From contig JACQQV010000046.1 in assembly GCA_016206785.1 (NCBI GenBank), positions 19,512-83,511 on the forward strand: a DNA stretch of 64,000 nt, read 5' to 3'. The stretch is from Candidatus Omnitrophota bacterium (GTDB taxonomy: Bacteria > Omnitrophota > Gorgyraeia > JACQQV01). The notes under the pieces are model-generated. The model did not search any database, was not told the DNA's origin, and saw nothing but the letters and a program-made list of their open reading frames with translations. Below, piece by piece: positions 16,309 through 64,000 of the stretch; position 1 is the first letter of the stretch, and every line of letters starts with the position of its first letter. Both the position numbers and the translations under genes were made by a program.

Positions 16309-16332
16309 CCCCCCTCCTCTTTCAAAGCCAAA

Positions 16333-16393
16333 GCGGGACTAAGTCCCAATGACGGTTAGACCTATCCCCGATGAAGGCGGGACTTAGTCCCTC
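16333..16393. repeat. Family C element (copy 1): two GCGGGACT(A/T)AGTCCC 13-15-mer palindromes 31 nt apart
   Basis: GCGGGACTAAGTCCC at 16333..16347 and GCGGGACTTAGTCCC at 16377..16391. The astD stop TAA is the TTA inside the second palindrome. Confidence 0.6.
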
Positions 16394-17853: not shown

Positions 17854-17865
17854 CTTTTCCTCTCC

Positions 17866-18771
17866 TTACTCAAATGGGACCGCAATGATTTTTCTTCCCT
17901 CTTTCATTTTTAAAAAATCTTGAGCGACATAGGCCATTACTTTTCCTCTTCGGGGGACCTTCCCCTTTTGAAACCTAAATTTTTTTGCTTTTCGGATTAC
18001 AGAGATTTTCTTCCGTTCCACTTCGTAATAGGGACCTCCATCAAAAGGCTCTATCCTTCCATTGGGATGGAAACCGATTGCTTGAAGCATCCGACAGGCG
18101 GGAATAGCTTCTTTCCCCACTTTTCCAAGAAGCGCACGCACCTTTTTCGGGAAATGGGAAAGATAGACTTTACCTTTTGGAAAAAGATCGAAAATAAATT
18201 TCTTCGTGTAGACGCTCAACCGATCTCCCTCGCGGTAGGAAAGCCCTGTGAAGCGCCTCCCGAAGGCATCCCAAAAAAGACTTCCCTTCCTTTTCTGAAG
18301 AGGCGGGAGAAACTCTGCAAGGACTTGGCGTTCAAATCGTTCAGGATGAAGCGCCATATAAAGGAAGCGGGCCCAGGAAAGTTGCTTCCCGAATTTCTCC
18401 TTTCTTCGCCGATAGGCCTTCTTGAGCACAAGGCCCCCGATTTCAGTAGGACCCTGTTTCGTCGCACCGAATTTGAGATACCCCCCTTTTCGATCCCTCC
18501 CCTTTTCCAAATAGATATGCGGTGAAGAAGGGGTCCCTTGTCTTGCGATAATTAAAGAGGAGCCGAAAATCTTCTTCGAAATTTCTTCTTCGATCACGAA
18601 AAGGTATTTTGCTTTTGTTCTGGGAAGTTTTCCCTGAAAGGAGAGAACGGATGTCCGGATCAGGTTCCGGATGACCTTCGGGTCATCCGGCAGGTTGTAG
18701 GAATCAAGTTCCTTGGCCAATGAAAGAACAGCGGGAAAATCTTTTTTTTCAACGCTCCTTAGAAAAACCAT
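17866..18771 (-). CDS. astA: arginine N-succinyltransferase
   Basis: The N-terminus [21 protein letters not shown] resembles E. coli AstA [34 protein letters not shown] matches PKSEQGYVFVLED, and [10 protein letters not shown] matches FDGGPTLECD. Confidence 0.75.
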   Translation of the reverse strand: [301 protein letters not shown]

Positions 18772-32017: not shown

Positions 32018-32091
32018 GGGGCTGTGGTGAAGCGGGATCACACGACAATGGCATTGTCGGGTCACGGGTTCGATTCCCGTCAGCTCCACCA
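32018..32091 (+). tRNA. tRNA-Ala (anticodon GGC)
   Basis: Hand-folded cloverleaf. The acceptor GGGGCTG/CAGCTCC carries the G3:U70 alanine identity pair. The anticodon stem is CGACA/TGTCG with loop ATGGCAT. The T-loop is TTCGATT and CCA is encoded. Confidence 0.85.
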
Positions 32092-32515: not shown

Positions 32516-32602
32516 GCCGAAGTGGCGGAATGGGTATACGCGCCGGTCTCAAAAACCGGTGGGGGCAACCCTGTGAGAGTTCGACCCTCTCCTTCGGCAC
32601 CA
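32516..32602 (+). tRNA. tRNA-Leu (anticodon CAA), type II with long variable arm
   Basis: The acceptor is GCCGAAG/CTTCGGC. The anticodon stem is CCGGT/ACCGG with loop CTCAAAA. A 15-nt variable arm, T-arm GAGAG-TTCGACC-CTCTC and an encoded CCA are present. Confidence 0.85.
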
Positions 32603-32627: not shown

Positions 32628-35600
32628 TTAGACAGAATTGAGGTAGGTTTCGTACGCTTTGCGGTACTCCGAACCAATGGGGATGGGTGCAGCCTGAATC
32701 ATATTTCCTTCCATTTTTAGAAATTGAGCCAGTTCCCCCAAATTCCCGCGTGCCTGCCAAGTGTGCTGAACCACAGAGACTTCTGCCGCAACATTCACAA
32801 GAAAAGAGGCAAGATTTAAGGCGTTAGGAGTTGCCGAATCGGATGACCAATTAAAAGAAGGATCAAAAACGACCATTCTGACCTTCGACTGAATTTTCGG
32901 CTTTGCGCCCGGCGTTTTAGATTCCACAAGAGCCAGTCCCGTTTGCATTCGAGGATTCGGCATTGATACAACACCGGAACCTTTCCATAGATTTATATTG
33001 TCACGGGAGGCAATAACCACGACATCCGGACTTTCAAGCAAAGGAAAATCAATATTTTGATCTGCAAATTTTTCCCAAAGTAAATCTTCTAATGTCTTGG
33101 CATAATATCTCGACCGAATGGCGCTGCCATACCACATGCTTGCCTCTTCCTTCATCTCGACGAGAATTTGCTCTCGTGTTTTTCCATATGCGCGGAGGCG
33201 GTATTCAAGGTTTTCAGGTGAAATTCGCAAAAATTCTGCAATCTCCTCGTCGGTCCCTTTTATTCTCAGTTTTTCAAACAGCATACCTTGAGTGACAATG
33301 ACGCTGAATTGCTCGGGGCGCAGAGCGTGTTTCGCCAAATAAGCGTCAATTTCTCCGGAAGTCACCGAGGAATCGTCGATAATCAGGGTATTCTTAAAAA
33401 GACTCTTTCGATTGTCTCGAGGATTTCCGGTAGCGTCCGCCAGATGGTCTAAGGCAAGAGAAAAACTCTCCCCCAGATCTTCCCTTAATAAAGATGAATG
33501 GTAGAGGTGAAATTTGGGTTTGGCATTTCTTTTGAGCTCTTCGCTCGGCGTGCGATCCGCATATTTTCCTTGTGCCATGAGCCACTCTGGATCTCGAGCC
33601 ACATACCGCTCGGCACCGTCCCGAACCGCAATCGTCTCCGGCTGATGGACGATGAGGACTCGGTTGTCGTTCCATTCTCGATGGCTCTTTACTTCGGCCT
33701 CCTTCGACAATTGGTCGTTTCGGCGGTTGAGAATCGCGTTTGCCGGTTCACCGCGCCCCGCCCATCCGGCAATGTTCTCGGCAAGCCACTGCCGTTTCCC
33801 TTTCAGGTCGTACGCGACACCATCATCTCCAAGAAGGACCGTACTTTGATCTCCCAAAGGAAGCTCTCCTTCCAGAAACCATGCCTCCTCCCGTAAATAG
33901 GGTCTCATCCGCCGATCCCCATAGGAATTGGTAAATCTCCAGTAAGGACCGACCCTCGCTGCCCGCCCGAAGTCCTGACTCCCTTCATGGTAAACCGCTC
34001 CCTTTGCAAGGGCAATGTTTCTTCCCTCTTCATCCAAAGCCGGGTTCTGTTCGGGAGTGGTGAGTCGAATTTCTCCCTGATCCGCAATCATGAGCCACGC
34101 ATCCCCTCTTCCGAATCCGGAGACCCTTCGTTCATCCCCTACCTTCCGGATAAAGGCAACGGCGACGAGTGCGCCCGAATCCATCTTTTCGACAAGAGCG
34201 AGAAGGGCGCGGTCTGTTGTCTCATAAACGTCGCGGAAGTTTTCTCCCTTTTCACGAAGGGCATTTTCAAAAATGGAAGGGAGTTTCCGCTTGATCAGGT
34301 GCGCCGCCTCTTCGTCATAATGCCCATCGATCACAGCGATCAAATCTCCCTCAATGTTTCCTACCCTCACCGGATGAACAAGGGTGCGGCTCTCTTGGCC
34401 TTCCCGTCCCGTGCCGATATCGGCCACATAACTGACTTTTCCGCCCGAGACGGCCTCTTTCTCCCCCGCTTCGTACTCCACATTCCAGCTGTACCGACCG
34501 TCCTTAAAGAGCCAGAAACCGTTCACAAACTTGTGGTTTTCCATCCGCCACCGGCCGTCGAGATTATCCTCAAAAATATCGATTCCCCGTTTCAGTTGTT
34601 CTTCCGAATGGAACGGGTATCCCAAAACAGGGTGGTGGGTCTGTCCCGCCCGGACCATCGTCAGTTCTTCGTGTACCTGCTCGAGCGCTTCTTGAATTTT
34701 GGCCTCCATCAAAAGATCCACATCCAAAGGGTTTTTCGTTGCACTCTTGGTTTTACTGAGAATGTGCCGCAGCACCAGATCGGGCCGGAGGAGAACCCCT
34801 CCGATGATATCGTTTTGAGGACCGGGTCCGAGTTTTTGGGTGAAGTGAATCAGATGCTCCCCTGCTTTGACCCGCTGTGCCACGATACTTCCAAAGCCGA
34901 GGTACGTTTCTTCCCCATCTTCCACTTCAAAAATGGTGTTCGTTCCGACAAAGGTCGTCTCGAGAATAATTCTCCCGGAGGAATCCGGTCGGTCCGGCAC
35001 CACCGTGGAGCCGCCCCCCCAGTTGGGGGCATTCGCCACCTCTATGGTTTTTCCTTTCGCCCTGAACGTGATCGGCCGTGCGACGACATTCAAAGCCCTT
35101 CCGGCAAGATGGTGGTTTGTGTAAAGTCCCGAGACGAAAACGTTCACATGGAGGGAACCGATGCCCCGATTAACCCCCGGCGTCGAGTCGTCGAAATGGC
35201 TCGAAAGGACCGTCGCATAGGGCTCGAGCAGATGGTATTTTCCGATATTGCTGAGTTTCGCCAGAAAGAGACTCCCCTCTGTTTCGTCTCCGATAAAAGT
35301 ATTTTGAACGCGGCCCATGCTCAAGCGAACCCCATTTCCGATGTCTGAGATGTTTCCCTCCGTTGAATCGATGAACATCCGGACAAGACGTGCTCTTCTT
35401 CCGATTCTCGCGTATTGAATGCCGGATCCCCAAACGAAAGTCTCTTCACCAACGGTGGTATCGATCAGATGGGAACCGAAAATTTTCGCTCCCTTCCGGA
35501 TAACCGTCTTCCCTTCCAAAATCACGCCCGGGCCGATAACGGCCCCTTCCTCAATTTCAACCTGATTGCCGATGACGGCGGTCGGGTCAATATCGGCAAT

Positions 35601-38600
35601 GGCACCGAATTTCTCCAGAGGATTGACCGTTTCTTCGCCCCCCCTCGGCTCAAATGCTTCCGGAAGATGCTCTGCCGTCAGAATCGGTTCATAGTCGGAC
35701 ACCCGGTCGCGGGGGATCTTCGGGTCGTTTTCAGGAAGTTCTTTGAAAAGGGTCTGGCGGTAATCCGTTTCGGAAACGCCCTCTAAGGCGGTCCTCTTTA
35801 AATCGAGCGCTTCATGGGTCCATAGGCCATTCTCAAATTTCCAGCGGGGGTCTTTCTCTCCATTCCGATATCGCCACGCACCGCTATCGATATGGAGCCG
35901 GTATGCGTCCCGCCATTTTTCAAGAAGGGCGATCCGTTCGTGGTCCTGGTCATCCCTGAATTTTGCCTTCTCCTCTGCAAGCTCCGCTTCCACCAACGCC
36001 TTCCCGGTCTCAAGCATCTCCACCGGAAAATCATCACCCGTTGACTTTTTCTCGTCGGGCAGGGCATCCACCATCTCCTGCATCAGGGTAAAGATTGTAT
36101 CGGGACTGTAGATAAAAAGGAAAGGAACAGAAACCGCTTTCCGGCTCAAACCGAACTTTGCCGCACCCGGAAGTGCCATTCCCCAATCATCCCACGCCGG
36201 TTTCCCCCGAACAGGAGAACCGATCAGGGAGAAGGGCGTCGCATGCGTGAGATTCCGGTTTGCCATGAGCGTCAGGGGATCGGCAGAAGGTTGTCCTCCC
36301 CCAAGGGCGATCCACCGTAAAAACGGACTCAGGGTGGAGAGAGGGTCTACTATAAGATAGCCGTGGGCACTCGATTCTGAGCCGTCGATTCCTCTGATCC
36401 GGACCGGCGGAAAAAGCGCCTTCGGGTCCCGTGGAACAATCCGAATCATCTCCTCTTCCTTAAATTCTTCATAAAGACCGTGCGTGTGCGCTTTAAGCGG
36501 ATTCAGGGTGCCGAGGTAACTTGAATCGACTACGTTCCGTCCCATATGGGAGATCGCGGGGAGAGAAAAACTCTTTTCGACTTTAAGTTTCCGTGTATCT
36601 GGATCAAACCGGAGAGAGACGATTTCATTCGTATGGAGCGCCGAATCAATAAAAGCCTGCTTGTCCGCGTAGAACTTGTAACCGAGCCACGCCTCGCTCA
36701 CTTCAAGCGGAAGCTCGGGCGTCCCTTTCAGGGTTATTTCATGCTCCGTATGCACCAGCGTCATTTTGATATGCCGCAGCCGGTTGTTCCGTCCGATGTC
36801 GCTGTTTTGATAGACGCCGCTTTCGATTTCCGTTCCCCGGCCGACAGTCGTGTTGACCACTCTTGCGCCACTGATCCGGGCTTCCGGCCCGACCCGGGTC
36901 TGGTTCCCGGAAACCGTATAGACCCTTTTTCCGGAAAGATCTTTCCGGTCGAAGGACCAGTCGTCAAAGTTACCGGTTGTCTCCAAAACAGTATCGGATA
37001 AGACGGCGTTGTCCCCAACCAATGCTCCTGAAACAAAACTTGATTCAACAGTTGCCTGAACACCGATCTCCACGGCGTGGTCCTTTGTCGCTTGGATGTA
37101 ACTTCTTCCGATAATCCGGGCGCCCGGAAGAATTGCGACAAACCCTTCCCTCACATCGAAGACCACTTGATCGCCGACGATAGCGGCCCGTTCCAGACCG
37201 ATGATATTCCGCGGATCCCCGAGAATCTTATACCCTCCATCCCGGGCGGTGGCAAATTTTTGGTCTTCGGTCTTTGGTCTTTGGTCTATCTTTTCTCCCC
37301 CATCCCGGGCGGTTGTGGGGCCCGAGGAGCCGCGACGCCTACGAAGTGCGAGTTCATTCTTAAGAGTTTCTATTTCTCTCTCCAACAAAAATTTTGAAGA
37401 GGGTGAGGCGGTTTCGATCTGTGAAGTTAACTGGGCAATTTTGTCTTGCAGTTCCTGGGCTGTTTCTTTCCCTCTTCCTCCATCCTTGGCATGGGTTCTT
37501 TCAGTATCGTCCTCGGCGGCGCCAAAGGGTTCGATGCGAATCCCTTCAACGGACCAATCCTCACCAAATCGCGGCTTGGACCCTTTCCCTTCGACGGTCA
37601 CAACTTCCCTTGCGATGGTTGCAAGTGCCTTTGAACGCAAGCGGGCCGCTTTGACTCTCGCCTTCAGTTCTTCTGTAGGACCGGTGATCTCTGTCGCCGT
37701 TTTAAAAGGGAAGAAACCATTGAAATTTTCGCCTTCAGGAAACGTGAGATAAACGAGTTGCAACTCTATCCCCTTCTCCTCTTTTGAGAAATCTTTCAAT
37801 ATCTTCATCGATTCCTCATAAACCGCCCTATGACGCGGATGGGGATCATTGGGATCGTTTAACAAAATGATGATTTTGCCGCCCCGGCGGTACATCCCCA
37901 AAAAAGTTTTGAGGTTGCTTCTCAGTTGCGTCGCAGCCTGCCGGACGATTTCCTCATCAGGCATTTCCGGGTTTTGGCGAAGGATATCCGTGCCGATAAG
38001 GTTTGGGGGATCGGTTCCCAACCATCGTGCTGCATTTTTTTCTTCTTTTTCTCTTATTTCAGCCTTCCTCAACCGCTTTGTGGACAAGGGGATCGTTTCA
38101 TCCTCGTCTATCTCTGGCATATAAGCCCCGGATCCTGTCGATAGAATCCAGCTCTGAACATCCATTCCATATTTCTTAGACAGATACACCAGGGCTCCTC
38201 CCATGATCGCAATATCATCCGGATGCGCCGCAATCACGAGGAGGGGAACCTTTCCTCTGGAAAAGGTCTTGAACGACTCACGCCCCCACACCATTTCTCT
38301 GGATGAAAAAAGAGGCTTACCCCCTTTGAGAGTCACGGTGACATAGATTTCAGCATGAGGATGCTTTAACCCAAACTCCAGGGCATGCGCTGTGTCCGCA
38401 TTTCTCGCCATCAAATGATAGGGGAGGCGGCTATGCTGGCTGAGGTGCGCCTTGATCGCTTTCTCTTTGATCGCCGCGACCTCGTTGGTGAAAGGAACGA
38501 CCAGATTAAACCGACCTTGAACCTCAAGAGATTTGTAAAAAATGAAAATGGCCGACCGCCCCTGCGACCCCAGGACTTGTTCAACGTTGTCCCGTAGGAT

Positions 38601-40673
38601 CAGGTCATGCAAAGGTAAAAATACAAAATCGGGACGAAACTTGCGCAGATTTTTCCGAAGGGCCTTGAGGGCCTCCTCGTTCCTGTCCACAGTCATCCGG
38701 ATGATGGTGTTTCCTCTCTGTTCAAAAGCACCGATAAGGTTTCCTGCATAGAAATCAGGATCCCATGCTTTCAACTGGACAACAGCCACTTTTTTATCTT
38801 GAGGAATCGAGAATTGATGAACCCCTTCCACCTCCCGATCACCCAGAAGCACCTTCAGGTTTTCTTCCAACATCCTTCTCACACGACTTACGGTTAATTC
38901 CTTCTCCCCTCCCTCTTTGGCATACTTCTGTCCCAGCTGTCTCCCCTGCCCATCCTGGGCTGCTCCTCTTTCTAAATCACCCTTCAAGAAGCGCGGGACA
39001 CCCCGTTCGAGGGCGGGGAGCTGGCGAAGGTTTTCATCGGCAGGCGTGGCAGGCTTTGCCTTTTCTTTCAGGATCTCGTGATAAAGTTCAAGGTTTGAAG
39101 GCTGCGTAATTTTAGGAGCGATGACCATGTAGGAATAGTTCTGCTCCCTTAGAAGTCTCGTGATCTGAGCCGTATGAAAACCTCCTGCAATAAGGACCAC
39201 CACATCGACATGTTCCCCATTCATCTTTGAGATGGCATTTTCCACGAGGGCATTATCCCGCTTCATCCCGGTTTCATAAAAAGACTCCAGAAGGGCGAGA
39301 TGATTGTCAATGGGAGAGGTGTCTTCCGGGAAAGAAAGGGTGAGTTTATACTGCTGCATTTTCCCGACGAGAAATTTCTTCCACCCCTTAATGGGGAAGC
39401 CTTGACGATCTTGCTGATACGCATGAAGGTCTTCGGGAGAGAGATTTAATTCCAGAAAATTGAGGAGGATGTCCAGTCTATCGGAGATTTCAGAAAGGGT
39501 TCGTTCGTCATTCGATGTATACAAACGCCCCTTGATCTCTTTTTCAAGGATCTTTCCCTCTCGAAAAAGTTCTACATGGTCGCGGTCTGCATACAGAAGG
39601 ATATAGTCGATATAGAGGTCAAGATCCTGATGGCTTCCTTTGGCCGGGTCTTTCTGCTTCAGGATCTCTTTTAAGAAACCGTAATACTCTTTGGGCCCCG
39701 CTTCATTGAGTTTGTATTTGAGCCCCTTCTCTGCCAAGGAGGTGAGTTCTCCTTTTGAAAGGACCTGCGTCAGTTTTCCAATCAAGGCCTGATGCTGGCC
39801 GTCTACCTTCTGGAAGTCGATTTTCTTCTCTAAGACCGAGGCCTCGAGGAAATTCTTGAAGTTGGGATAGCGGGAAAGATCGACCTTTTCGCTAAGGGCC
39901 ACTCCTCCTAAATACTGGTAGTACTCAACCGCCTGCCCCTTCCCTTCCTCATACGCATATTTCTCACGCTCAAGTTCCTTGAGCCTCGGAGAAAAGAGGT
40001 TCACTTTGAGTGTCTCGACGATCGCCTTGACCGACCGTGCCACCTTAAGGGCTTTTTCTTTAAAGGCATCCACCTTAAAGAAAATATCGAGATTTTTGTC
40101 ATAGAGCTCTTCATCTTCAATCCCCCAGAGGGTGATCGGGTTATCCGATGTGATATCGAGATACTCCTCCCCTGAGATCTTTCCCGCCTTGAGGTATTTC
40201 TCAGCCACTTCAAGGCGCTTTTCTTTACTCGCTTCGGACCTTAGGAACGAAAGACTGGTATCTCCGCTTCCTCCTTCCACCAAGATGAGGCGGAGTCCGT
40301 TTTGTTTGATCAGTTTGTCGAGGATGTTGGCGAGGTTCTTTTGGGCTTCGTAATGAACATGGACATCTTGGATATGGATGACAAGGGGTTTTGGATTTCC
40401 CTGGTAGGTTTCGGAGATGCGGCCATATTCAGGGGGGACCTGAACCGCCTGGACCAGTGTTTTGGGGCGATCCCCCAGAAGACTTAAAGGATCGAGGGCG
40501 GGCTTGGGTGAACCTCTGTTTTCTTCCGGCTTAAATTCTAAATCTTGGGTCTCTCGTTCTTGCTCTTTCTTTTCTTCAACGGACCGGAAGATGCTCCGCT
40601 GGGCGTGGGAGGAAGGAACGATTGAAAAAAGAAAGCATGCCCCTAAGAAAAGGAGGAGGAGTTTCCGTGCCAT
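32628..40673 (-). CDS. giant (2681 aa) secreted multi-domain protein. Domains in order: N-terminal domain paralogous to the 41741..43327 product, a PIG-L/LmbE-like deacetylase, a coiled-coil linker, two left-handed beta-helix (hexapeptide) regions, a PP2C-like phosphatase and an unassigned C-terminal region.
   Basis: This is an uninterrupted 8-kb ORF. The signal peptide is MARKLLLLFLGACFLFSIVPSSHAQ. The PIG-L motifs are VIAAHPDD...NDPHPRH (about 37830..38260). The hexapeptide runs are IGNQVEIEEGAVIGPGVILEGKTVIRKGAKIF and IVGDQVVFDVREGFVAILPGARIIG. The PP2C-like motifs are IDGHYDEEAAHL, FGRGDAWLMIAD and LLGDDGVAYDL (about 33790..34560). The N-terminal 570 aa matches the paralogue (IHIQDVHVHYEAQKNLANIL against IHIQDAHVHYEAQKNLASIL). 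Confidence 0.8.
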   Translation of the reverse strand: MARKLLLLFLGACFLFSIVPSSHAQRSIFRSVEEKKEQERETQDLEFKPEENRGSPKPALDPLSLLGDRPKTLVQAVQVPPEYGRISETYQGNPKPLVIHIQDVHVHYEAQKNLANILDKLIKQNGLRLILVEGGSGDTSLSFLRSEASKEKRLEVAEKYLKAGKISGEEYLDITSDNPITLWGIEDEELYDKNLDIFFKVDAFKEKALKVARSVKAIVETLKVNLFSPRLKELEREKYAYEEGKGQAVEYYQYLGGVALSEKVDLSRYPNFKNFLEASVLEKKIDFQKVDGQHQALIGKLTQVLSKGELTSLAEKGLKYKLNEAGPKEYYGFLKEILKQKDPAKGSHQDLDLYIDYILLYADRDHVELFREGKILEKEIKGRLYTSNDERTLSEISDRLDILLNFLELNLSPEDLHAYQQDRQGFPIKGWKKFLVGKMQQYKLTLSFPEDTSPIDNHLALLESFYETGMKRDNALVENAISKMNGEHVDVVVLIAGGFHTAQITRLLREQNYSYMVIAPKITQPSNLELYHEILKEKAKPATPADENLRQLPALERGVPRFLKGDLERGAAQDGQGRQLGQKYAKEGGEKELTVSRVRRMLEENLKVLLGDREVEGVHQFSIPQDKKVAVVQLKAWDPDFYAGNLIGAFEQRGNTIIRMTVDRNEEALKALRKNLRKFRPDFVFLPLHDLILRDNVEQVLGSQGRSAIFIFYKSLEVQGRFNLVVPFTNEVAAIKEKAIKAHLSQHSRLPYHLMARNADTAHALEFGLKHPHAEIYVTVTLKGGKPLFSSREMVWGRESFKTFSRGKVPLLVIAAHPDDIAIMGGALVYLSKKYGMDVQSWILSTGSGAYMPEIDEDETIPLSTKRLRKAEIREKEEKNAARWLGTDPPNLIGTDILRQNPEMPDEEIVRQAATQLRSNLKTFLGMYRRGGKIIILLNDPNDPHPRHRAVYEESMKILKDFSKEEKGIELQLVYLTFPEGENFNGFFPFKTATEITGPTEELKARVKAARLRSKALATIAREVVTVEGKGSKPRFGEDWSVEGIRIEPFGAAEDDTERTHAKDGGRGKETAQELQDKIAQLTSQIETASPSSKFLLEREIETLKNELALRRRRGSSGPTTARDGGEKIDQRPKTEDQKFATARDGGYKILGDPRNIIGLERAAIVGDQVVFDVREGFVAILPGARIIGRSYIQATKDHAVEIGVQATVESSFVSGALVGDNAVLSDTVLETTGNFDDWSFDRKDLSGKRVYTVSGNQTRVGPEARISGARVVNTTVGRGTEIESGVYQNSDIGRNNRLRHIKMTLVHTEHEITLKGTPELPLEVSEAWLGYKFYADKQAFIDSALHTNEIVSLRFDPDTRKLKVEKSFSLPAISHMGRNVVDSSYLGTLNPLKAHTHGLYEEFKEEEMIRIVPRDPKALFPPVRIRGIDGSESSAHGYLIVDPLSTLSPFLRWIALGGGQPSADPLTLMANRNLTHATPFSLIGSPVRGKPAWDDWGMALPGAAKFGLSRKAVSVPFLFIYSPDTIFTLMQEMVDALPDEKKSTGDDFPVEMLETGKALVEAELAEEKAKFRDDQDHERIALLEKWRDAYRLHIDSGAWRYRNGEKDPRWKFENGLWTHEALDLKRTALEGVSETDYRQTLFKELPENDPKIPRDRVSDYEPILTAEHLPEAFEPRGGEETVNPLEKFGAIADIDPTAVIGNQVEIEEGAVIGPGVILEGKTVIRKGAKIFGSHLIDTTVGEETFVWGSGIQYARIGRRARLVRMFIDSTEGNISDIGNGVRLSMGRVQNTFIGDETEGSLFLAKLSNIGKYHLLEPYATVLSSHFDDSTPGVNRGIGSLHVNVFVSGLYTNHHLAGRALNVVARPITFRAKGKTIEVANAPNWGGGSTVVPDRPDSSGRIILETTFVGTNTIFEVEDGEETYLGFGSIVAQRVKAGEHLIHFTQKLGPGPQNDIIGGVLLRPDLVLRHILSKTKSATKNPLDVDLLMEAKIQEALEQVHEELTMVRAGQTHHPVLGYPFHSEEQLKRGIDIFEDNLDGRWRMENHKFVNGFWLFKDGRYSWNVEYEAGEKEAVSGGKVSYVADIGTGREGQESRTLVHPVRVGNIEGDLIAVIDGHYDEEAAHLIKRKLPSIFENALREKGENFRDVYETTDRALLALVEKMDSGALVAVAFIRKVGDERRVSGFGRGDAWLMIADQGEIRLTTPEQNPALDEEGRNIALAKGAVYHEGSQDFGRAARVGPYWRFTNSYGDRRMRPYLREEAWFLEGELPLGDQSTVLLGDDGVAYDLKGKRQWLAENIAGWAGRGEPANAILNRRNDQLSKEAEVKSHREWNDNRVLIVHQPETIAVRDGAERYVARDPEWLMAQGKYADRTPSEELKRNAKPKFHLYHSSLLREDLGESFSLALDHLADATGNPRDNRKSLFKNTLIIDDSSVTSGEIDAYLAKHALRPEQFSVIVTQGMLFEKLRIKGTDEEIAEFLRISPENLEYRLRAYGKTREQILVEMKEEASMWYGSAIRSRYYAKTLEDLLWEKFADQNIDFPLLESPDVVVIASRDNINLWKGSGVVSMPNPRMQTGLALVESKTPGAKPKIQSKVRMVVFDPSFNWSSDSATPNALNLASFLVNVAAEVSVVQHTWQARGNLGELAQFLKMEGNMIQAAPIPIGSEYRKAYETYLNSV

Positions 40674-56679: not shown

Positions 56680-57246
56680 TTAACCTTCAATTTTGGGAAG
56701 AGTAATCTCCTTCTGCGCCTGGTATCTTCCCTTTTTATCCTTGTAGGAAACTTCGCAGACTTCGTCCGCTTCGAAAAAAATCACCTGCCCGATGCCTTCA
56801 AAGGCATACACTTTTGCCGGAAGGGGGGTCGTGTTAAAGATCTGGAGTGTGGCATATCCTTCCCACTCCGGCTCAAAAGGGGTCACATTGATGAGGATCC
56901 CGCATCGGGCATAGCTCGATTTTCCGACGCAGAGGGTGAGAATATTTCTTGGAATCCGGAAATACTCAGCCGTCCTCCCAAGGACAAAAGAGTGTGGGGC
57001 GATCGTGCAGATCTCCCCTTTAAAATCGACGAAACAGGCCTGATCCAAATGCTTCGGGTCAACAAAGGTCGCCCGTGTCGGGTCAAACACTTTGAATTCA
57101 TCGGAGAGGGTGATGTCATAGCCATACGAAGAGAGGCCTGAAGAGATGACCCCTTGGGTGATCCGACGCTCCCCGAAAGGAGTGATCATCTGTTGCGTCT
57201 TGCACATCTTACGAATCCAGGCATCCGATTTAATGGACACGGTCAC
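56680..57246 (-). CDS. dcd: dCTP deaminase
   Basis: 188 aa. [24 protein letters not shown] and ...[16 protein letters not shown] are typical of Dcd. Confidence 0.85.
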
Positions 57247-58865
57247 TCCTCAAGGATCAGTCTCCTTAAAAAAGGAAAAGGAAGGGATCCTTCTTTTAAA
57301 AGTCTTGTGTGAAACTCTCCGAGACGGAAATGCCGCCTGCGTCGGTATTCCTCCCGCAGTTTCAAAATCTCCTGCTTCCCGATCATGTAACTGGAAGGTT
57401 GCGTCGGCTCCAGGAGATACCGACGGATCTCTCGGACGGCAGAATCATGTGCCATCGAAACCTCCCGCTTCAGAAACGCCACCCCCTCCGCCGACGTCAT
57501 TCGTCCTGTATGCAGTTGTGAATCGAGGATCACACGGGAGGCCCGCCAGAGGTGGTTTTTCATGAGGAGAAGATACGTTTTGGAATCAGGGTCAAACCCC
57601 TCCTCCAGCATCATCTCTTCACAATAGAAGGCCCACCCCTCCGCCAATACATCATCCTGAAGAAATTTCCGAATGGGAGAAGGATGGGCATTTTGCCACA
57701 CAAACTGTAGATGATGTCCCGGATAGGCTTCGTGAATGACGGTAAGACGCACTTCCTGAACGGAATGTTCCCGCAAAAGGGCCTGAATCTTACGGGTACT
57801 GCCGAAAGGAGGGGTCACATAGAAGATTCCGCGGGGGTCTTTTTCCAATGGGGCCGGTGGAAGATACGCCGCATAAGGAATAATCGGCCGCTCGTAAATC
57901 GGGGTCTCTGTCAAAAGGAGTTTATCTTTTGCAGGAATCTGGGCGATCCCCTTTTCTTCGATGAAACGCTTCACCTTTCCTAAAACTTTCTGATATTCCT
58001 GGACAAGTTTTTTGGGATGCGGGAGATCAAGGTGGCTCTTGTAAAGGATGGCACGCCAGTCCTGCCTCGGATCGATCAGCCGAGCAACCATTCGGATCTT
58101 TTTCTTCGCCTTCTCCAGTTCCTCCTGGCCCATTTCCAAAAGGGTCTTTGCATTATAAGGAAGGAGATGAACTTCTCTCAGCATAAAATCGAAAAGCTCG
58201 CGACCGACGGCGCTGGACCCTTTTGCCTTTGGCAAAAGGGTCCGTTTCAAAAACTCGCCATATGCCTGAAGGGCCTTGAGGGTCTCTTTTTGACTTTCGG
58301 AAAGATCTTTTCGCAGCGAGGCGGGTAGTGCACTTTGATGAAGCGCAAGATCCTTAAAAAAAGTAATGGAACTTTCGGTAATTTCGTAGGCCGTCAAAAT
58401 AGAATCTCTCGGGCAGACCTTAAGGTTCCTTTGGGCCTGCTTCAAATAATGGGGGATTTTTCTCATCCGGAGCGCAAGATTTCTCAAACGCTCCTCCCGA
58501 GGAGCAAAGACGCCGATGGAAAGGAGGTAACAGGCATCTGTACAGCGGCTGACATAGGAGGCGGGATCGGTTTCCCAGTCTCTTTCCCGCTTCTCCAGTT
58601 CTAGACCTGCCCAGAGATCCTGACAGAGCGCCTGGTAGTCGATCCGGTCAATGGGCTTAAGTCTCGATGGACCGATCTCCTTTCTGAAGGCGGATAAGAA
58701 TTTTGTCTCTCCTTCCAGATACTCCTCAATCCCCTCTTTCGAGAAATCGCCCAAGAGGTCATCGTAAAGATGAAAGCCGTAGTGGGTCGCCTGCATCGGA
58801 CGGGCCCTGAAAAAGAATCGCTTGTATTCCCAGAAGAGTTTATAAAGTTTTTCTTTCTCGGTCAT
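57243..58865 (-). CDS. DUF885-family putative metallopeptidase
   Basis: 540 aa with the motif [13 protein letters not shown] (HExxxGH). It overlaps dcd by 4 bp. Confidence 0.6.
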
Positions 58866-58968: not shown

Positions 58969-60369
58969 TTGACCATGGAGAAAATCCAAAAAGCAAACTG
59001 GCTCCACGAACTCCTTCTTACACTTCCTGCAGCGAGACAGCGAGAGCTCCTCCGTTCTGTCCGGAAGATTAGTCATAAGGAAAGAATCCTCTACGAAAAA
59101 CATCGCGGGGGCCATAAAGTCATTCCCCTTTTTGTTCGGCCACGCCTCCTTAAGCCTTTTCAGCTCCGGTACTGTCGAGGCATCATCCTAGAACTCCAAA
59201 AGGCGATCCAAATCATTTACAACCACTATTTCGAAGAGCCCCTTTTTCAAGAAATCCTCCCGTTTCCTGAAATTGAAAAAGAGCATTTCATCCGATTCTA
59301 CCAAGCCCAGGGCCGGGCGCAGACCGTCATGAGCCGTTGGGACGCCGTCTCCGATTATAGCGGAGCGAACTGGAAAAAGTATCTCCGTTTTGTGGAATGG
59401 AACGGGGTCGGGATCGGTGGCCTTTATTATGCCATTGCCGCACAGACCATCATGCAGAAAGCGCTCTTTCCTCTCCTTAAAGAACTGAAACCGAATTTTA
59501 GACTCGTTAAAATGGTAGATTCCCGAGAGCTTCTTTATCGACAGATCCTCCGTCACGCCAAAAAGGTAGGGATCCGTTTAAAACGGGTGGGCCTGGTGGA
59601 GGAGCTCCGCGAACTTGGAGGGCCGCTTGAATTCGAGGAGTTCCGGGATTATTTCAAGAAAAGGGGCCTGGATGCAGTTCTCTCAGACCCTCGCGATCTT
59701 TCCTTAAATAAAGGTAAGATCCTTGCCCGCGGAAAAGTCGTTGAGATGATCTACCGGGACTCTGAACTTGAAGAGATACTCGATATGGAGAAACATGGAG
59801 ACGACATGCGCGCCTTCAAGGAGGCCTTCCGGCGGAACGCCGTGCTTTCTTCTTTAATGGGAGAGTTCGATCATAAAAGTGCTTTGGAGGTTCTCACCCG
59901 CCCTGATCTTGCGCGATATTTTACGCCTCGGCAACGGAATATCTTCCGCTTTCATGCGGTCTGGACAAGACTTCTCCGTCCCATCTTTACGACTGGTCCT
60001 GATGGAAAAAGAATCGACCTCTACGCCTATGCCAGGCGTAAAAGAGAAACGTCGGTCATTAAACCAAACAGGGAATTTGGCGGTAAGGGCGTCACCTTCG
60101 GAAAGAATCTCTCACAGCGCGAATGGGAGCGATCTCTTGAAAAGGCGTTCCGTCATCCAAGTGGGTGGGTGATTCAGGAACAGGCTGAAAACCGGCAGAA
60201 AAAATTTATCACTTCAAGGAGGAGAAAACTTCAGGAAGAATCTTTGAACGTTGTGGATGGACACATTGTGACCCCTGACGGAATTTCCATTATCGGCCGG
60301 GGTTCCCGCCTCGAAGTTGTGAATGTCGCCCGCCAAGGGGGACTTGTTGCTACATTGGTGTATCGGTAG
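58969..60369 (+). CDS. ATP-grasp family ligase (glutathionylspermidine-synthase-like / circularly permuted ATP-grasp)
   Basis: 466 aa. The C-terminal half VIKPNREFGGKGVTFGKNLSQREW...GWVIQEQAE resembles E. coli YgiC [24 protein letters not shown]...GMIVQQFHP. Confidence 0.45.
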   Translation: MTMEKIQKANWLHELLLTLPAARQRELLRSVRKISHKERILYEKHRGGHKVIPLFVRPRLLKPFQLRYCRGIILELQKAIQIIYNHYFEEPLFQEILPFPEIEKEHFIRFYQAQGRAQTVMSRWDAVSDYSGANWKKYLRFVEWNGVGIGGLYYAIAAQTIMQKALFPLLKELKPNFRLVKMVDSRELLYRQILRHAKKVGIRLKRVGLVEELRELGGPLEFEEFRDYFKKRGLDAVLSDPRDLSLNKGKILARGKVVEMIYRDSELEEILDMEKHGDDMRAFKEAFRRNAVLSSLMGEFDHKSALEVLTRPDLARYFTPRQRNIFRFHAVWTRLLRPIFTTGPDGKRIDLYAYARRKRETSVIKPNREFGGKGVTFGKNLSQREWERSLEKAFRHPSGWVIQEQAENRQKKFITSRRRKLQEESLNVVDGHIVTPDGISIIGRGSRLEVVNVARQGGLVATLVYR

Positions 60370-60371
60370 GA

Positions 60372-61505
60372 TCAGTCTTCTGGATACTCGGGGTACTCAA
60401 AGATCTCCCCTTTGTAATTCCGGAGGATGACTTTGCCGTCCCCCATACTGACCACGTAATTGGGACTGATGGGGATCTTCCCTCCCCCGCCCGGTCCATC
60501 AATCACGTAGGTCGGCACGGCATAGCCGGTTGTGTGTCCTCGAAGCCCCTCGATGATCTCGATCCCCTTCTGCACAGAGGTCCGCATGTGGGTCGTCCCT
60601 TTGACAAGATCGCACTGGTAGATGTAGTAAGGACGAACGCGAGCCATGAGGAGTTTGTGCATTAGTTCCTTCATGATAGGCAAGGAATCGTTGATGCCTC
60701 GCAGAAGTACCGTCTGGCTCCCCAATGGAATCCCTGCATCGACGAGCCGCTCGCAGGCGGCCTTCGATTCAGCGGTCACCTCTTTGGGATGGTTCACATG
60801 CACACTCATCCAGACAGGGTGGTATCTCCGGACCATCTCGCAGAACTCCGGTGTGATCCGCTGCGGCAGTGCAAACGGAAGCCGCGATCCAATTCGCAAA
60901 AACTCGATATGTTTAATCGAGCGGAGCCTCTTCAGCATGTATTCGATTTTAGCATCACTCAAGAGAAGAGGATCTCCGCCCGAAATCAGCACATCCCGCA
61001 CCACAGGCGTCTTTTCAAGATACTCACACGCACGATCAAAATCTTCCTGAATAAACAGATACTGTTTTTCCTCGCCGACCAAGCGGCTTCGGGTGCAATA
61101 GCGACAATAGACCGCACAGCGGTTTGTCACAATCATGAGCACCCGGTCAGGATAACGGTGGACAAGACCCGGCACCGGGGTATGGCTATCCTCTCCGCAA
61201 GGATCGGTCATCTCCAGAGGAGAGACGATTGACTCCCTGACGTTCGGGACAAACTGCTTCCGGATCGGACAGTTTGGATCCTGAGGGTCGATGAGTGTCG
61301 CGACATAAGGAGTAATCGCCATGGAGAGCTTATGCTTTGGAAGTTTCATCCCCTCTTCCTCATCGGGCGTCAGTTCAATCACTCTCGCTAACGCCTCTTT
61401 GGTTTTGAGGCTGTTCCGAAGTTGCCATTTCCAGTCGTTCCACTCCGCATCCGACACGTCTTTCCAAAGCGCGCGTGTGGTAGTACTACATGCCGCAATG
61501 GACAT
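60372..61505 (-). CDS. kamA: lysine 2,3-aminomutase (radical SAM, KamA family)
   Basis: The radical-SAM cluster motif CAVYCRYCTRS (CxxxCxxC) is present. A KamA-type N-terminus (WKDVSDAEWNDWKWQLRN) is present. Confidence 0.85.
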   Translation of the reverse strand: MSIAACSTTTRALWKDVSDAEWNDWKWQLRNSLKTKEALARVIELTPDEEEGMKLPKHKLSMAITPYVATLIDPQDPNCPIRKQFVPNVRESIVSPLEMTDPCGEDSHTPVPGLVHRYPDRVLMIVTNRCAVYCRYCTRSRLVGEEKQYLFIQEDFDRACEYLEKTPVVRDVLISGGDPLLLSDAKIEYMLKRLRSIKHIEFLRIGSRLPFALPQRITPEFCEMVRRYHPVWMSVHVNHPKEVTAESKAACERLVDAGIPLGSQTVLLRGINDSLPIMKELMHKLLMARVRPYYIYQCDLVKGTTHMRTSVQKGIEIIEGLRGHTTGYAVPTYVIDGPGGGGKIPISPNYVVSMGDGKVILRNYKGEIFEYPEYPED

Positions 61506-62544
61506 TCTCCCCCCTCCTTTTTGGGTTGCCTAATCTCGCCTCTTTGCGAGCAATTGCACATTCCAGAATCTTCCCAATGACTTCTGGGTATGATAAGCCG
61601 GCAGCGTCTGCCGAGCGGATGAACCCCGCATCCGATGAAATACAGGGATTCGGGTTCACCTCGATAATATAAGGGGTTCTTCCTTTAAGCCGAATGTCGA
61701 CCCGGGCATAGTCACGACAACCGAGAATCGTGCAAGCGGAGAGCGCCAACGAACGGAGCGTTTTTTCAAGAGAAACCGTCAGAAGGGCGGGACAGATCGG
61801 CGGCGTTTTGCGGTACTCCTCAGAAGATTCATCCCACTTGGAGGCGTAGGTGAGAATCTTGGGCTCCCCCTTCTTTGCGGCAGAGTGATCGATCTCCGAG
61901 ACAGGTAGAATCTGAGTCTCTTCACCGTTTCCGAGAAGGGAGATGTTGAATTCCCGGCCGTCGAGATACTCTTCCGCAATCACCGGTTGGCGGTATTCTT
62001 TGACGATCTTCTTGACTCTCCGATGAAGGGCTACTTCATCATGAACGACCGATCCCCTATCCAGCCCCAAGCTTCCATCTTCATGGAGAAGTTTGACGAT
62101 GAGAGGAAAATGGAGTCTTTTCGGCCTCCCGTTCGCCTCTTCCAACACGGCATGGGCCGGCGTGGGGAGGCCGTGGGCCGAGAGAAGTTCCTGCGCCTTC
62201 GCCTTGTCCAGACAGAGCCCAAGGGTCAGAGGATCTGATCCGGTATAGTCGATCCCTAAAAGTTCCAGAAAGGAAGCGACATACCCTTCATAGATCCCTT
62301 CTCCTTTAATATCTTCACAAAGATTGAAAATCACCTCTTCCCGGTGGCGGAGGAGGTCTTCGATAAATGCATCAAGCCGTTTATAGTTCATTTCGAGGCG
62401 ACGGGTCTTATACCCTTGCTCCAAGAGTGCCTTCTCTACCGCCTTCACCTCTACGACGATATCTTCCTGAGAAGGAAGGTACCTCCCCTTCTCAAAGGCG
62501 CTATTATCGTAAAGAATAGTGACGCGTTCTTGATACCTCATCAC
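61486..62544 (-). CDS. D-alanine--D-alanine ligase family ATP-grasp protein (1 of 2)
   Basis: 352 aa with the Ddl-like fold. Representative segments are PLIVKLLHEDGSLGL and YIIEVNPNPCISSDAGF. It overlaps kamA by 20 bp. Confidence 0.7.
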   Translation of the reverse strand: MMRYQERVTILYDNSAFEKGRYLPSQEDIVVEVKAVEKALLEQGYKTRRLEMNYKRLDAFIEDLLRHREEVIFNLCEDIKGEGIYEGYVASFLELLGIDYTGSDPLTLGLCLDKAKAQELLSAHGLPTPAHAVLEEANGRPKRLHFPLIVKLLHEDGSLGLDRGSVVHDEVALHRRVKKIVKEYRQPVIAEEYLDGREFNISLLGNGEETQILPVSEIDHSAAKKGEPKILTYASKWDESSEEYRKTPPICPALLTVSLEKTLRSLALSACTILGCRDYARVDIRLKGRTPYIIEVNPNPCISSDAGFIRSADAAGLSYPEVIGKILECAIARKEARLGNPKRRGENVHCGM

Positions 62545-63565
62545 TCAAACCCACCCGTTTACAGGCGATCGAAAGAACCTCCAGAATCAGTTCTTCATAC
62601 TTCATTCCTTGAGCCCGTGCCGCCTTTGGAAAACAGGAATTCTGCTCCGGATTCGGCAGAATCCCGGGAAGCGGATTCACTTCCAATACGTGCGGCTCCC
62701 CTTTTTCATCCAGTCGCATGTCGATGCGGCACCAATCCCTGCACTTCAAGACCTGAAAGGTCCTTTTGGCAAGATGAGACAGTTTTCGTTCAAGGGTATA
62801 AGGAATCTTTGCGGGACACTCAAAGATACGGAGAGGGGACTTCGGGGTATCCCACACCCACTTCGCTTCATAAGAATAGATCGGATGGGCTCCTCTTGGG
62901 AGTGTGTTCAAATTGATTTCGACAACCGGAAGGACTTCAAGAGAAGAGTCGTTCCCCAAGAGGGCGAGGGTAAATTCCCTGCCGGGAAGGAATTTTTCAA
63001 TAAGAGCGGGCTCTTGGTATCGTTCAAGGACAAACTTGACCTGCTTCCGGAGCTCCTGCGGCGTTTCTACAACCGCCTTGTCCAGAATCCCTTTGCTGGA
63101 ACCTTCCCAGAGCGGTTTGACAATAAGAGGAAAGGTGAGGCCGTTTAAATAGTAGTCGGTCTCTTCGCAGACCAGAAAATCGGGGGTTGCAATTCCGAAT
63201 TGGCGCAAGACCCGCTTGGTCCAAGCCTTGTCTAAGGCGACCGAGAGGGTTTCTGGACCGGAACCGGTATAAGGAATGCCGAGGGAGTCTAAGAGGGCTG
63301 GGATTTCTGCTTCGCGGAGAGGGCCAAAGCGTCCTTCCGCAATATTGAAGACGATGTCGGGTTCTTCCCTCCTGAACGCCTGAACCGACCGTTCATCCGC
63401 TTCGATCAGGACAACGTCATGGCGCTTCCGAAGGGCCGCGGCAATCGCTGTGATCGTCTCGGCGTCATCCCACTCTAAGTAGGTGTCTTCCGGAAGAGAA
63501 ACTCCCCTCCCGTTTCTGCCGCCCAGAAGGGGCCTTTTTTCGTTAAACGTTAACCCAACCTTCAT
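62504..63565 (-). CDS. D-alanine--D-alanine ligase family ATP-grasp protein (2 of 2)
   Basis: 353 aa, paralogous to the previous gene (PLIVKPLWEGSSKGI; HVLEVNPLPGILPNPEQ). Confidence 0.7.
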   Translation of the reverse strand: MKVGLTFNEKRPLLGGRNGRGVSLPEDTYLEWDDAETITAIAAALRKRHDVVLIEADERSVQAFRREEPDIVFNIAEGRFGPLREAEIPALLDSLGIPYTGSGPETLSVALDKAWTKRVLRQFGIATPDFLVCEETDYYLNGLTFPLIVKPLWEGSSKGILDKAVVETPQELRKQVKFVLERYQEPALIEKFLPGREFTLALLGNDSSLEVLPVVEINLNTLPRGAHPIYSYEAKWVWDTPKSPLRIFECPAKIPYTLERKLSHLAKRTFQVLKCRDWCRIDMRLDEKGEPHVLEVNPLPGILPNPEQNSCFPKAARAQGMKYEELILEVLSIACKRVGLSDEVSRTRHYSLR

Positions 63566-63585
63566 CGTCGCGTCACAGCTACTCT

Positions 63586-63915
63586 TTAGAGACTTTCTCC
63601 AAAAAGCGAAGCCTTTTCTTTCATGGTGCTCTTTAAGATCGCATTCACCAGCCTAAGCACCCGAAAGACCCGATCGTCCGCCACCGAATAATAGACGTTG
63701 GCTCCCTCCTGTCGAGAAACGAGGATGTTGGCCTGCTTGAGAGCCGCGAGGTGACGCGACACGTTGGATTGTCCGATTCCAATCGTGGAGACGATGTCTC
63801 CGACAATTTTTTCTCCGTCTTTGAGGTATTCGATGATTTCAAGCCGTACCGGATGCGACAGCGCCTTCAAGAAATTGGATTTGAAACTCTGCCGGGCGAC
63901 TTGAGCGTTCACCAT
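63586..63915 (-). CDS. ArsR/SmtB-family transcriptional regulator
   Basis: 109 aa. LKALSHPVRLEIIEYL, then the HTH IVSTIGIGQSNVSRHLAALKQANIL. Confidence 0.8.
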   Translation of the reverse strand: MVNAQVARQSFKSNFLKALSHPVRLEIIEYLKDGEKIVGDIVSTIGIGQSNVSRHLAALKQANILVSRQEGANVYYSVADDRVFRVLRLVNAILKSTMKEKASLFGESL

Positions 63916-64000
63916 CCCAAAACTCCTATATCTACATATCCCTCTTTCAACCTATAGAGATATTAGCATATGGCTATTTGCTTGTCAAGTCCTTTTTGCA

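Follow-up and report, generated by a model that had tools for sequence, protein, structure and literature searches.

A lysine 2,3-aminomutase operon with two Ddl-fold ATP-grasp ligases in Candidatus Omnitrophota and its relatives across bacterial phyla

Organization of the locus

We analyzed 64,000 nucleotides from a Candidatus Omnitrophota bacterium (GenBank assembly GCA_016206785.1, contig JACQQV010000046.1, positions 19,512 to 83,511 of the forward strand), hereafter called the window. It contains an operon that encodes a lysine 2,3-aminomutase (KamA), two ATP-grasp ligases with the fold of Ddl (D-alanine-D-alanine ligase), here named AG1 and AG2, and an ArsR-type regulator. Five open reading frames (ORFs) were confirmed between positions 58969 and 63915 (Table 1), and Pfam and NCBIfam searches confirmed the families of all but ORF466, which scored below the Pfam cut-off. 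The gene order on the minus strand is ArsR, AG1, AG2, KamA. ArsR and AG1 are separated by 20 bp, the AG2 and KamA frames overlap by 20 bp, and those of AG1 and AG2 overlap by 41 bp; the latter overlap shrinks to 38 bp with the AG2 start of the public gene call, an ATG one codon further downstream. The initial annotation had reported the same two overlaps, but it had let ArsR close the operon. ArsR lies upstream on the same strand and is the first gene of a translationally coupled operon, not the last. Apart from the two ligases, no enzyme is co-transcribed with KamA, and the recurrence of the same gene order in other phyla puts the arrangement far beyond chance. ORF466 meets the operon tail to tail, its stop codon 2 nt from that of KamA.

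Table 1. Genes and predicted regulatory sites of the operon and its flank (window coordinates)
Feature	Position	Strand	Description
ArsR/SmtB-family winged-helix regulator	63586-63915	-	109 aa; HTH_5, NF033788; first gene of the operon
AG1, Ddl-fold ATP-grasp ligase	62504-63565	-	353 aa; distinct, highly conserved subfamily; fused to KamA elsewhere
AG2, Ddl-fold ATP-grasp ligase	61486-62544	-	352 aa; paralogue of AG1; fused to GNAT elsewhere
KamA, lysine 2,3-aminomutase (radical S-adenosylmethionine, pyridoxal phosphate)	60372-61505	-	377 aa; short form without the C-terminal zinc-site region
ORF466, circularly permuted ATP-grasp amidoligase	58969-60369	+	466 aa; glutathione synthetase/GspS/Cp1B-like fold; membership of the system uncertain
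DUF885 protein, HEAYPGHH motif	57243-58865	-	divergent from ORF466; possible accessory hydrolase; membership uncertain
Predicted sigma-70-like promoter	63960-63988	-	TTGACA-17 nt-TAATAT, extended TG; upstream of arsR
Candidate operator	63928-63963	-	imperfect inverted repeat ATATCTCTATA / TATGTAGATAT; arms 14 nt apart

KamA has the residues of a lysine 2,3-aminomutase

KamA matched the lysine 2,3-aminomutase of C. subterminale (PDB 2A5H) with 497.7 bits. It carries the CAVYCRYC motif on which the initial annotation had based the same assignment, and in the alignment to 2A5H the cysteines C125, C129 and C132 and the pyridoxal phosphate lysine K337 are conserved. The lysine-specific residues R134, D293 and D330 are kept in this KamA and in all 53 KamAs compared. 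Glutamate 2,3-aminomutases carry other residues at positions 293 and 330. Against the KamA-family model TIGR00238 the protein scored 362 bits (cut-off 199.2). A glutamate or arginine 2,3-aminomutase was ruled out by the conserved D293 and D330 and by the lower scores against the corresponding models (437 and 421 bits). The score against the AblA equivalog TIGR03820 was 514.6 bits (cut-off 525.4), a near miss because the C-terminus is missing; the match ends at model position 360 of 417. The end of the protein falls at about position 371 in Clostridium numbering, and residue 268 is Ser. The inter-subunit zinc site of the Clostridium enzyme consists of C268 together with C375, C377 and C380; judged by its alignment, the window KamA is a short form without this site.

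The initial annotation had allowed for an EpmB-like KamA with EpmA and elongation factor P (EF-P) as neighbours. KamA reached only 238.5 bits against the EpmB model (cut-off 369.3), and neither partner was found nearby. A search with an EF-P query gave no homologue in the window or in any fetched locus, and the only EpmA-like ORF was LysS (602 bits, cut-off 468). EF-P modification was ruled out by the KamA scores, the lack of efp and the presence of LysS in place of EpmA.

In a neighbor-joining tree, the KamAs of the window and of a second Omnitrophota species (locus L010) grouped with the Clostridium enzyme and with those of loci L023 and L041. They stand apart from the main clade of KamAs found with these ligases in other phyla, to which they are 44-51% identical. 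The nearest relatives outside Omnitrophota are full-length KamAs of Verrucomicrobiota and cyanobacteria, and no ligase gene lay near KamA at the one Verrucomicrobiota locus examined. Because the window KamA belongs to a different clade and this Verrucomicrobiota relative is without ligases, KamA genes of different ancestry have been combined with the ligase pair, and the linkage was formed or renewed more than once.

AG1 and AG2 combine a Ddl fold with altered pockets

AG1 and AG2 are paralogues with 34% identity, and both matched Dala_Dala_lig_C of Pfam (E = 5e-37 and E = 8e-25, respectively), which bears out their earlier description as paralogous Ddl-family ATP-grasp enzymes. Both scored below every Ddl, VanA, VanB and VanG cut-off in NCBIfam. 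The best Ddl model, NF002378 (cut-off 243), gave 197.8 bits for AG1 and 146.9 bits for AG2. The structural model of AG1, with a predicted local distance difference test (pLDDT) score of 82.7, matched DdlB with template modelling (TM) scores of 0.74/0.82 at about 30% identity.

We aligned 67 AG1 and 61 AG2 sequences with E. coli DdlB, whose landmark residues were verified for numbering. The ATP/Mg and catalytic residues K97, K144, E180, K215, R255, D257, E270 and N272 (DdlB numbering) are invariant in both families. The D-Ala pocket of DdlB is formed by the E15/S150/Y216 triad, H63, S281 and L282. In both families an invariant Glu occupies the place of H63 and Trp that of Y216, and L282 is replaced by Cys in AG1 and by Gly in AG2. 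AG1 keeps S150, S281 and G276; AG2 has Ala or Gly at the first, mostly Ala at the second and mostly Asp at the third (Cys in the window AG2). In AG1 there is, in addition, an N-terminal insertion, after which comes an invariant E-W-D motif. We predict that AG1 and AG2 are active ligases of non-Ddl specificity, because the ATP/Mg and catalytic residues are intact and those of the D-Ala site are changed.

No mur or dcw genes adjoin the ligases in the window or in the 80 related loci described below. Ordinary Ddl enzymes, the other alternative raised in the initial annotation, were ruled out by the curated cut-offs, the pocket residues and the genomic context.

The ligase pair adjoins KamA in many phyla

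A pattern scan with one genome per species gave 580 candidate loci. We analyzed the best 80, which were 51-59% identical to AG1, and assigned them to classes by tblastn. AG1-AG2-GNAT-KamA, in the same order and on the same strand, was found in 57 of the 80. Another three carried KamA in a different order or without a detected GNAT (one of these, L041, also with the pyruvoyl arginine decarboxylase PvlArgDC), which makes 60 species-level loci, from many phyla, in which KamA adjoins the AG1-AG2 pair. Ten loci were without KamA and had a pyruvoyl arginine decarboxylase gene upstream, alone or together with homologues of deoxyhypusine synthase (SpeY) and agmatinase. Seven loci were cut by contig ends, and three had other architectures. 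The hosts included Desulfuromonadales, Syntrophaceae, Kryptonia, Acidobacteriota, Bacteroidota, Ignavibacteriota, Chlorobiaceae, Nitrospinae, Planctomycetota, Fibrobacteres, Myxococcota, Auribacterota and Wallbacteria; many were groundwater or freshwater metagenome-assembled genomes (MAGs). The cassette was also seen in a Chlamydiota MAG. The neighborhood survey that the initial annotation had proposed thus returned a pair recurrent across phyla, together with a homospermidine linkage that it had not seen.

The GNAT of the cassette has about 160 aa and matched only RimI-like and generic models, below cut-off; none of the cassette GNATs matched the AblB model. In the window, tblastn (E <= 1e-3) found no homologue of this GNAT, other GNAT types not having been Pfam-scanned on every ORF. 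The order ArsR-AG1-AG2-KamA without GNAT recurs in other Omnitrophota (L001, L010). GNAT is ancestral to the cassette, and the window form is a variant. The best reading of the window operon is that it represents the Omnitrophota version of the widespread AG1-AG2-GNAT-KamA cassette, without GNAT and with an ArsR regulator.

All-against-all clustering of flanking ORFs in the fetched loci revealed no further neighbor that is widely conserved and, specifically, no conserved transporter, carrier protein or small precursor ORF near the cassette. The Desulfuromonadales loci have an extra upstream gene for a 587-aa histone-deacetylase-domain protein, with weak N-terminal GNAT matches in L070. RecG and dCTP deaminase were considered as accessory genes and rejected, their adjacency being lineage synteny. 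In the Kryptonia locus L043 the dCTP deaminase gene (7324-7860) directly precedes AG1, and four other loci of that lineage have an unannotated ORF of about 179 aa at this position. The window has a dCTP deaminase gene at 56680-57246, two genes beyond KamA, which is probably coincidence or old synteny.

Gene fusions join KamA, the ligases and GNAT

Fusions were sought with an exhaustive AG1 profile search, and the domains of the best 150 cluster representatives were then classified. Three independent fusions join KamA and AG1. Two have the order KamA+AG1 (P0301, 702 aa; P0434, 784 aa), and the third has the order AG1+KamA (P0381, 695 aa). Both domains are full length with short linkers, and D293 and D330 are kept in two of the three. 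The KamA half of P0381, in which Gln replaces the lysine-binding Asp293, may have another amino acid as its substrate. Two or more AG modules occur in one polypeptide, in both orders, in about 45 of the 150 top representatives. The same set contains five AG2-like+GNAT fusions, and one fusion joins an L-amino-acid-ligase domain to an AG module. Several of these domain orders could not be produced by simple read-through of the usual gene order. The pattern of KamA-AG1, AG1-AG2 and AG2-GNAT fusions suggests the pathway order KamA, AG1, AG2, with GNAT next to AG2.

Polyamine genes beside the ligases

Arginine-decarboxylase, SpeY or agmatinase genes lie beside the ligase genes in 11 of the 80 loci, L041 included, which carries both an arginine decarboxylase gene and KamA. 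SpeY, SpeB and arginine decarboxylase (ADC) form the experimentally established agmatine route to homospermidine, and bacterial SpeY homologues make free homospermidine (PMC13625781). When KamA-linked and polyamine-linked ligases were compared, conserved differences were found at one position in AG1 and two in AG2, none at catalytic residues. This near-identity of the conserved positions argues against different substrates in the two kinds of loci; the same chemistry is therefore to be expected in the KamA-linked and homospermidine-linked contexts. The simplest reconciliation, which we put forward as a hypothesis, is that a single pathway takes both β-lysine and a polyamine-type amine as inputs and that lineages cluster different supply genes. 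Locus L041, the deacetylase-domain genes and the GspS-like fold of ORF466 agree with this view.

The homospermidine-type loci L013, L017, L022, L047, L054, L058 and L073 all have a conserved methyltransferase gene downstream of AG2, with a second one in L013. Most of them also have an ORF of about 95 aa without a Pfam match and genes for glycosyltransferases of family GT4. These neighbors hint at a possible methylation or glycosylation of the ligase product in this lineage. In one deltaproteobacterial lineage, AG1 has as its direct upstream neighbor a third ATP-grasp-like gene, about 300 aa long and with a weak match to ATPgrasp_ST (L015, 7084-7989; L026, 5173-6093; L052, 221-1141). It follows an arginine decarboxylase gene in L015 and L026, and the L052 contig begins at the third gene. 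The GNAT after AG2 is fused to a methyltransferase in L026 and separate from the methyltransferase that follows in L015. Finally, the deoxyhypusine-synthase homologue of L007-L009 (about 6049-6516 in L007) has 155 aa, roughly half the length of the others (347-352 aa), and may be a split or decaying gene.

The regulator and a candidate operator

ArsR matched NF033788 with 84.1 bits (cut-off 55) and HTH_5 with E = 5e-13. ArsR/SmtB proteins bind metals or metalloids through an alpha-3 CxC site or an alpha-5 Asp/His site. Cysteine is absent from the 109-aa sequence, and its only two histidines do not form the alpha-5 arrangement. Because it has neither a cysteine nor an alpha-5 ligand pattern, the protein is unlikely to sense a metal or metalloid. 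ArsR also heads the operon in the second Omnitrophota species (L010), and the 110-nt region upstream of arsR is 85% identical between the two species, in which the proteins are about 70% identical. An operator search in this region, as advised in the initial annotation, yielded the candidate inverted repeat of Table 1, which spans from the -10 hexamer (4-nt overlap) to the ribosome-binding region of arsR. The repeat corresponds to positions 1713-1748 of L001 mapped onto the window, and the ends of its arms are kept in L010.

ORF466 and its metallopeptidase-like partner

The initial annotation had described the facing gene as a permuted or GSP-synthetase-like ATP-grasp enzyme. As a single sequence, ORF466 matched CP_ATPgrasp_2 of Pfam with E = 1e-3 and 18.5 bits, under the cut-off of 32; the description was borne out by the family profile and the structural model. 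The family has 49 members, mostly from Omnitrophota, and its profile matched the putative glutathionylspermidine synthase 3n6x of the PDB (E = 4.8e-17) and Cp1B (E = 4e-7). The model (pLDDT 93.4) gave Foldseek TM scores of 0.67-0.69 to eukaryotic glutathione synthetases and 0.62-0.69 over glutathione synthetases, Cp1B, 3n6x, YgiC/YjfC and glutathionylspermidine synthetase (GspS); trypanothione synthetase was also matched. By profile and model, ORF466 belongs to the circularly permuted ATP-grasp amidoligases.

ORF466 has a constant divergent partner, a metallopeptidase-like gene: DUF885 in the window and at L010 and L093, TldD/PmbA at L095 and L097. Its adjacency to KamA is interrupted in L010 by toxin-antitoxin and AAA genes and absent in L093 and L095. 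In L097, a 37%-identical ORF466 homologue faces the operon TldD-PmbA-GNAT-KamA-(AG1-like ligase), and in the Chlamydiota MAG (L099) the genes DUF885-AG1-AG2-GNAT-KamA lie on one strand, with DUF885 directly upstream. ORF466 and DUF885 are possibly accessories rather than core parts of the system. Insertions of toxin-antitoxin pairs (HEPN/nucleotidyltransferase or ParE/antitoxin) just downstream of KamA or ORF466 recur in different lineages (L004, 11698-12368; L010, 11372-12321; L093, 9437-9945).

Proposed pathway and alternative explanations

We know of no role for free β-lysine of its own, and to our knowledge its fates are few: an acetylated osmolyte, attachment to EF-P, fermentation and a few antibiotics. 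On balance, and with somewhat better than even confidence, we favor β-lysine as the direct substrate of two sequential amide ligases, whose product is probably a polycationic conjugate, possibly with a polyamine-type amine. KamA, in which the required residues are observed, would convert L-lysine to (3S)-β-lysine. AG1 would then use ATP to form an acyl-phosphate and make the first amide bond involving β-lysine, as the KamA+AG1 fusions suggest, and AG2 would make a second. In most lineages the small GNAT would acetylate a remaining free amine; the product of the window operon should keep that amine because the cassette GNAT gene is absent there. The product would be a small intracellular, probably polycationic β-lysine amide. 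As its partner, an amine of polyamine type, such as agmatine, putrescine or homospermidine, and/or another amino acid would be most plausible, because the nearly unchanged ligase pair sits in homospermidine clusters elsewhere. A cysteine-free ArsR-type repressor would control the operon from the conserved promoter, and ORF466 and DUF885, whose link is weak, may add or remove a further residue. The system is widespread and would belong with the pathways in which stand-alone ATP-grasp ligases make a small amide.

A bolder form of this proposal, which we regard as tentative and rather doubtful, is that AG1-AG2, with or without GNAT, make a new class of bacterial polycations. In these, β-lysine would be amide-linked to agmatine, putrescine or homospermidine, and the charge would be tuned by acetylation and deacetylation. 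Such compounds would serve as polyamine surrogates or extensions in many anaerobic phyla, and KamA and SpeY/ADC would be alternative neighbors that provide both inputs of a single pathway.

Several points weigh against the ligation of β-lysine by AG1 and AG2. First, no member of the AG subfamily has been characterized, and we infer all of the chemistry beyond β-lysine itself. β-Lysine could be the acyl donor or the amine acceptor, both roles being compatible with the evidence. In addition, the fusion proteins are metagenome gene calls in small clusters of 1-4 members, and the 80 loci are the best-scoring relatives of the window AG1, so the frequencies found among them are biased. By tblastn, the window contains no homologue of SpeY, SpeB or ADC, and hence none of these polyamine biosynthesis genes. 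Finally, green sulfur bacteria reportedly accumulate free N-epsilon-acetyl-β-lysine (Triado-Margarit 2011, as cited in PMC12776343). Two Chlorobiaceae loci carry the cassette (L062, L086), and there KamA and GNAT alone might account for this compound and leave the ligases unexplained.

The last point leads to an osmolyte pathway with bystander ligases, in which AG1 and AG2 would make an unrelated co-regulated solute, such as a dipeptide, or have another role in stress. The KamA-GNAT pair of P. carbinolicus is annotated as ablA/ablB for salt tolerance, with no comment on the ligases (PMC3543383), and betaine-type N-methyltransferases occur in some polyamine-type loci. However, KamA overlaps the ligase genes in the window although no homologue of the cassette GNAT is found there, the cassette GNAT is short, RimI-like and without a match to the AblB model, the KamA+AG1 fusions speak for consecutive steps, and many hosts are groundwater or freshwater MAGs. 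We consider this explanation unlikely.

It is more improbable that the ligases attach β-lysine or a polyamine to a protein carboxylate in the manner of RimK/LysX, or as an analogue of EF-P β-lysylation or hypusination. β-Lysine and deoxyhypusine-synthase homologues are both tied to EF-P/initiation factor 5A modification in known biology, the GNAT is RimI-like, weak RimK-domain matches were seen, and ORF466 relatives adjoin TldD/PmbA peptidases. Yet no conserved efp, ribosomal-protein or small-ORF partner was found in the window or the fetched loci, all EpmA-like matches were full-length LysS, and the homospermidine made by bacterial SpeY homologues is free (PMC13625781). It is also general knowledge that the characterized Ddl-family enzymes act on small molecules.

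A non-ribosomal polyamide containing β-lysine, for instance a reserve or polycation of cyanophycin-like or poly-β-lysine type, would make ORF466 an extra ligase and DUF885 or TldD/PmbA the depolymerases. The architecture of the AG+AG fusions is reminiscent of the two sites of cyanophycin synthetase, genes for peptidases are repeatedly found nearby in the Planctomycetota-Verrucomicrobiota-Chlamydiota group, and no exporter is conserved. On the other side, the peptidase and ORF466 links are limited to Omnitrophota and Chlamydiota, a GNAT cap and a small cassette better fit a defined small molecule, and direct evidence for polymerization is lacking, which leaves the polymer a poor prospect.

Least credible are cell-wall enzymes for a different dipeptide terminus or for the attachment of β-lysine or a diamine to peptidoglycan precursors: the top matches in every library are Ddl or Van ligases, and the Omnitrophota locus L097 has a LysM-amidase gene beside an AG-like gene, but the scores below all Ddl cut-offs, the changed D-Ala pockets, the lack of adjoining mur or dcw genes and the fusions to KamA and GNAT instead of Mur ligases all stand against them.

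The core of the initial interpretation, a β-lysine ligation pathway that is neither Ddl nor EpmB, is supported by the sequence comparisons. Its claim that KamA feeds ligases outside the cell wall gained from the 60 loci, the two KamA clades and the fusions, but the third ligase, ORF466, which it had counted in, proved only loosely tied to the system. It had also found no match to AblB, EpmA or fermentation. A distinct pathway is upheld, but N-acetylation is not foreign to it, as the usual cassette has a GNAT.

Bacteria of many phyla, then, share a cassette in which β-lysine synthesis is coupled to a dedicated pair of ATP-grasp ligases and for which no product of the coupling has been described. 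The current labels, D-alanine-D-alanine ligase and ablA/ablB, are probably wrong or incomplete for hundreds of genomes. The fusions and the homospermidine linkage provide a concrete hypothesis that is cheaply testable, and culturable hosts exist (Pelobacter or Desulfuromonas, Stygiobacter electus and Chlorobiaceae). Work on the system could bring to light a new family of metabolites, of β-amino-acid or polyamine type, and, within the Ddl fold, a new class of specificity.

Other features of the window

Otherwise the window carries chromosomal housekeeping genes (SecA, Lnt, LolCDE, LysS, PrfB, LeuS, MurJ, UvrC, ComEC, MnmE, FolC, PurH, PabBC, YchF, OGG and dCTP deaminase), with an even G+C content throughout. 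A viral origin was rejected on these housekeeping genes and on an AG1 scan of viral contigs, which gave no relative.

A run of arginine-catabolism-like genes at 15313-20157 on the minus strand resembles an arginine succinyltransferase (AST)-type pathway in an Omnitrophota genome. It consists of a dimethylargininase or arginine-dihydrolase-like gene (15313-16308), an aldehyde dehydrogenase (16384-17853), the arginine N-succinyltransferase AstA (17866-18771) and an M20 peptidase (18772-20157). A giant ORF of 2681 aa (32628-40673, minus strand) has a PIG-L de-N-acetylase domain at residues 812-957 as its sole Pfam match, the remainder being unannotated, and two tRNA genes lie just downstream (32018-32088 and 32516-32599). 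A McsB-type protein arginine kinase is encoded at 1081-2133 on the minus strand (465 bits, cut-off 385). Such kinases are mostly known from Firmicutes, and this one occurs in Omnitrophota.

Comparison with known systems

Full-text searches, with most subscription journals outside their coverage, found no description of KamA with a Ddl-like ligase pair. Work on pseudomurein ATP-grasp enzymes was set aside as irrelevant to this pair. The closest described pathway is AblA/AblB, which shares the KamA-type committed step and, in most related loci, an adjoining GNAT. A survey of EF-P modification had noted the clustering of ablA and ablB in Desulfuromonas and Syntrophus (PMC2821294). The window is without the cassette GNAT, and the GNAT found elsewhere is not of the AblB type. 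Furthermore, the Abl pathway has no ATP-grasp ligases, whereas the cassette has two, sometimes fused to KamA or GNAT.

AG1 and AG2 share with the Ddl and Van ligases the fold, the ATP/Mg and catalytic residues and presumably an acyl-phosphate mechanism. They differ in their pocket residues, in the insertion with the EWD motif and in their scores under the cut-offs, and their genomic partners are KamA, GNAT and polyamine genes instead of mur genes. In the EpmB/EpmA system, too, β-lysine from a KamA-family enzyme is joined to an amine by an ATP-dependent amide bond, but the AG ligases are ATP-grasp enzymes and not paralogues of aminoacyl-tRNA synthetases.

Small amides are made by ATP-grasp ligases without a non-ribosomal peptide synthetase in the Ngg system (the osmolyte NAGGN, from a GNAT and an ATP-grasp enzyme) and by carnosine synthase, which has a β-amino acid donor. 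In the fungal E-64 pathway, the ATP-grasp enzyme Cp1B works with an amide bond synthetase that adds agmatine (PMC12568646). Some of these three systems use a β-amino acid or a polyamine-type amine, and some have an acetyl cap added by a GNAT. The AG ligases are not homologous to those of Ngg and carnosine synthase at the subfamily level, and none of the three includes a radical S-adenosylmethionine aminomutase.

Finally, ORF466 shares the circularly permuted ATP-grasp fold with GspS, trypanothione synthetase and eukaryotic glutathione synthetase. It differs from these enzymes in being only 10-16% identical to them, in having no amidase domain and in belonging to a small, mostly Omnitrophota family. 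Their reactions, the acylation of a polyamine amine or the extension of a small peptide, are of the type that we propose for the cassette.

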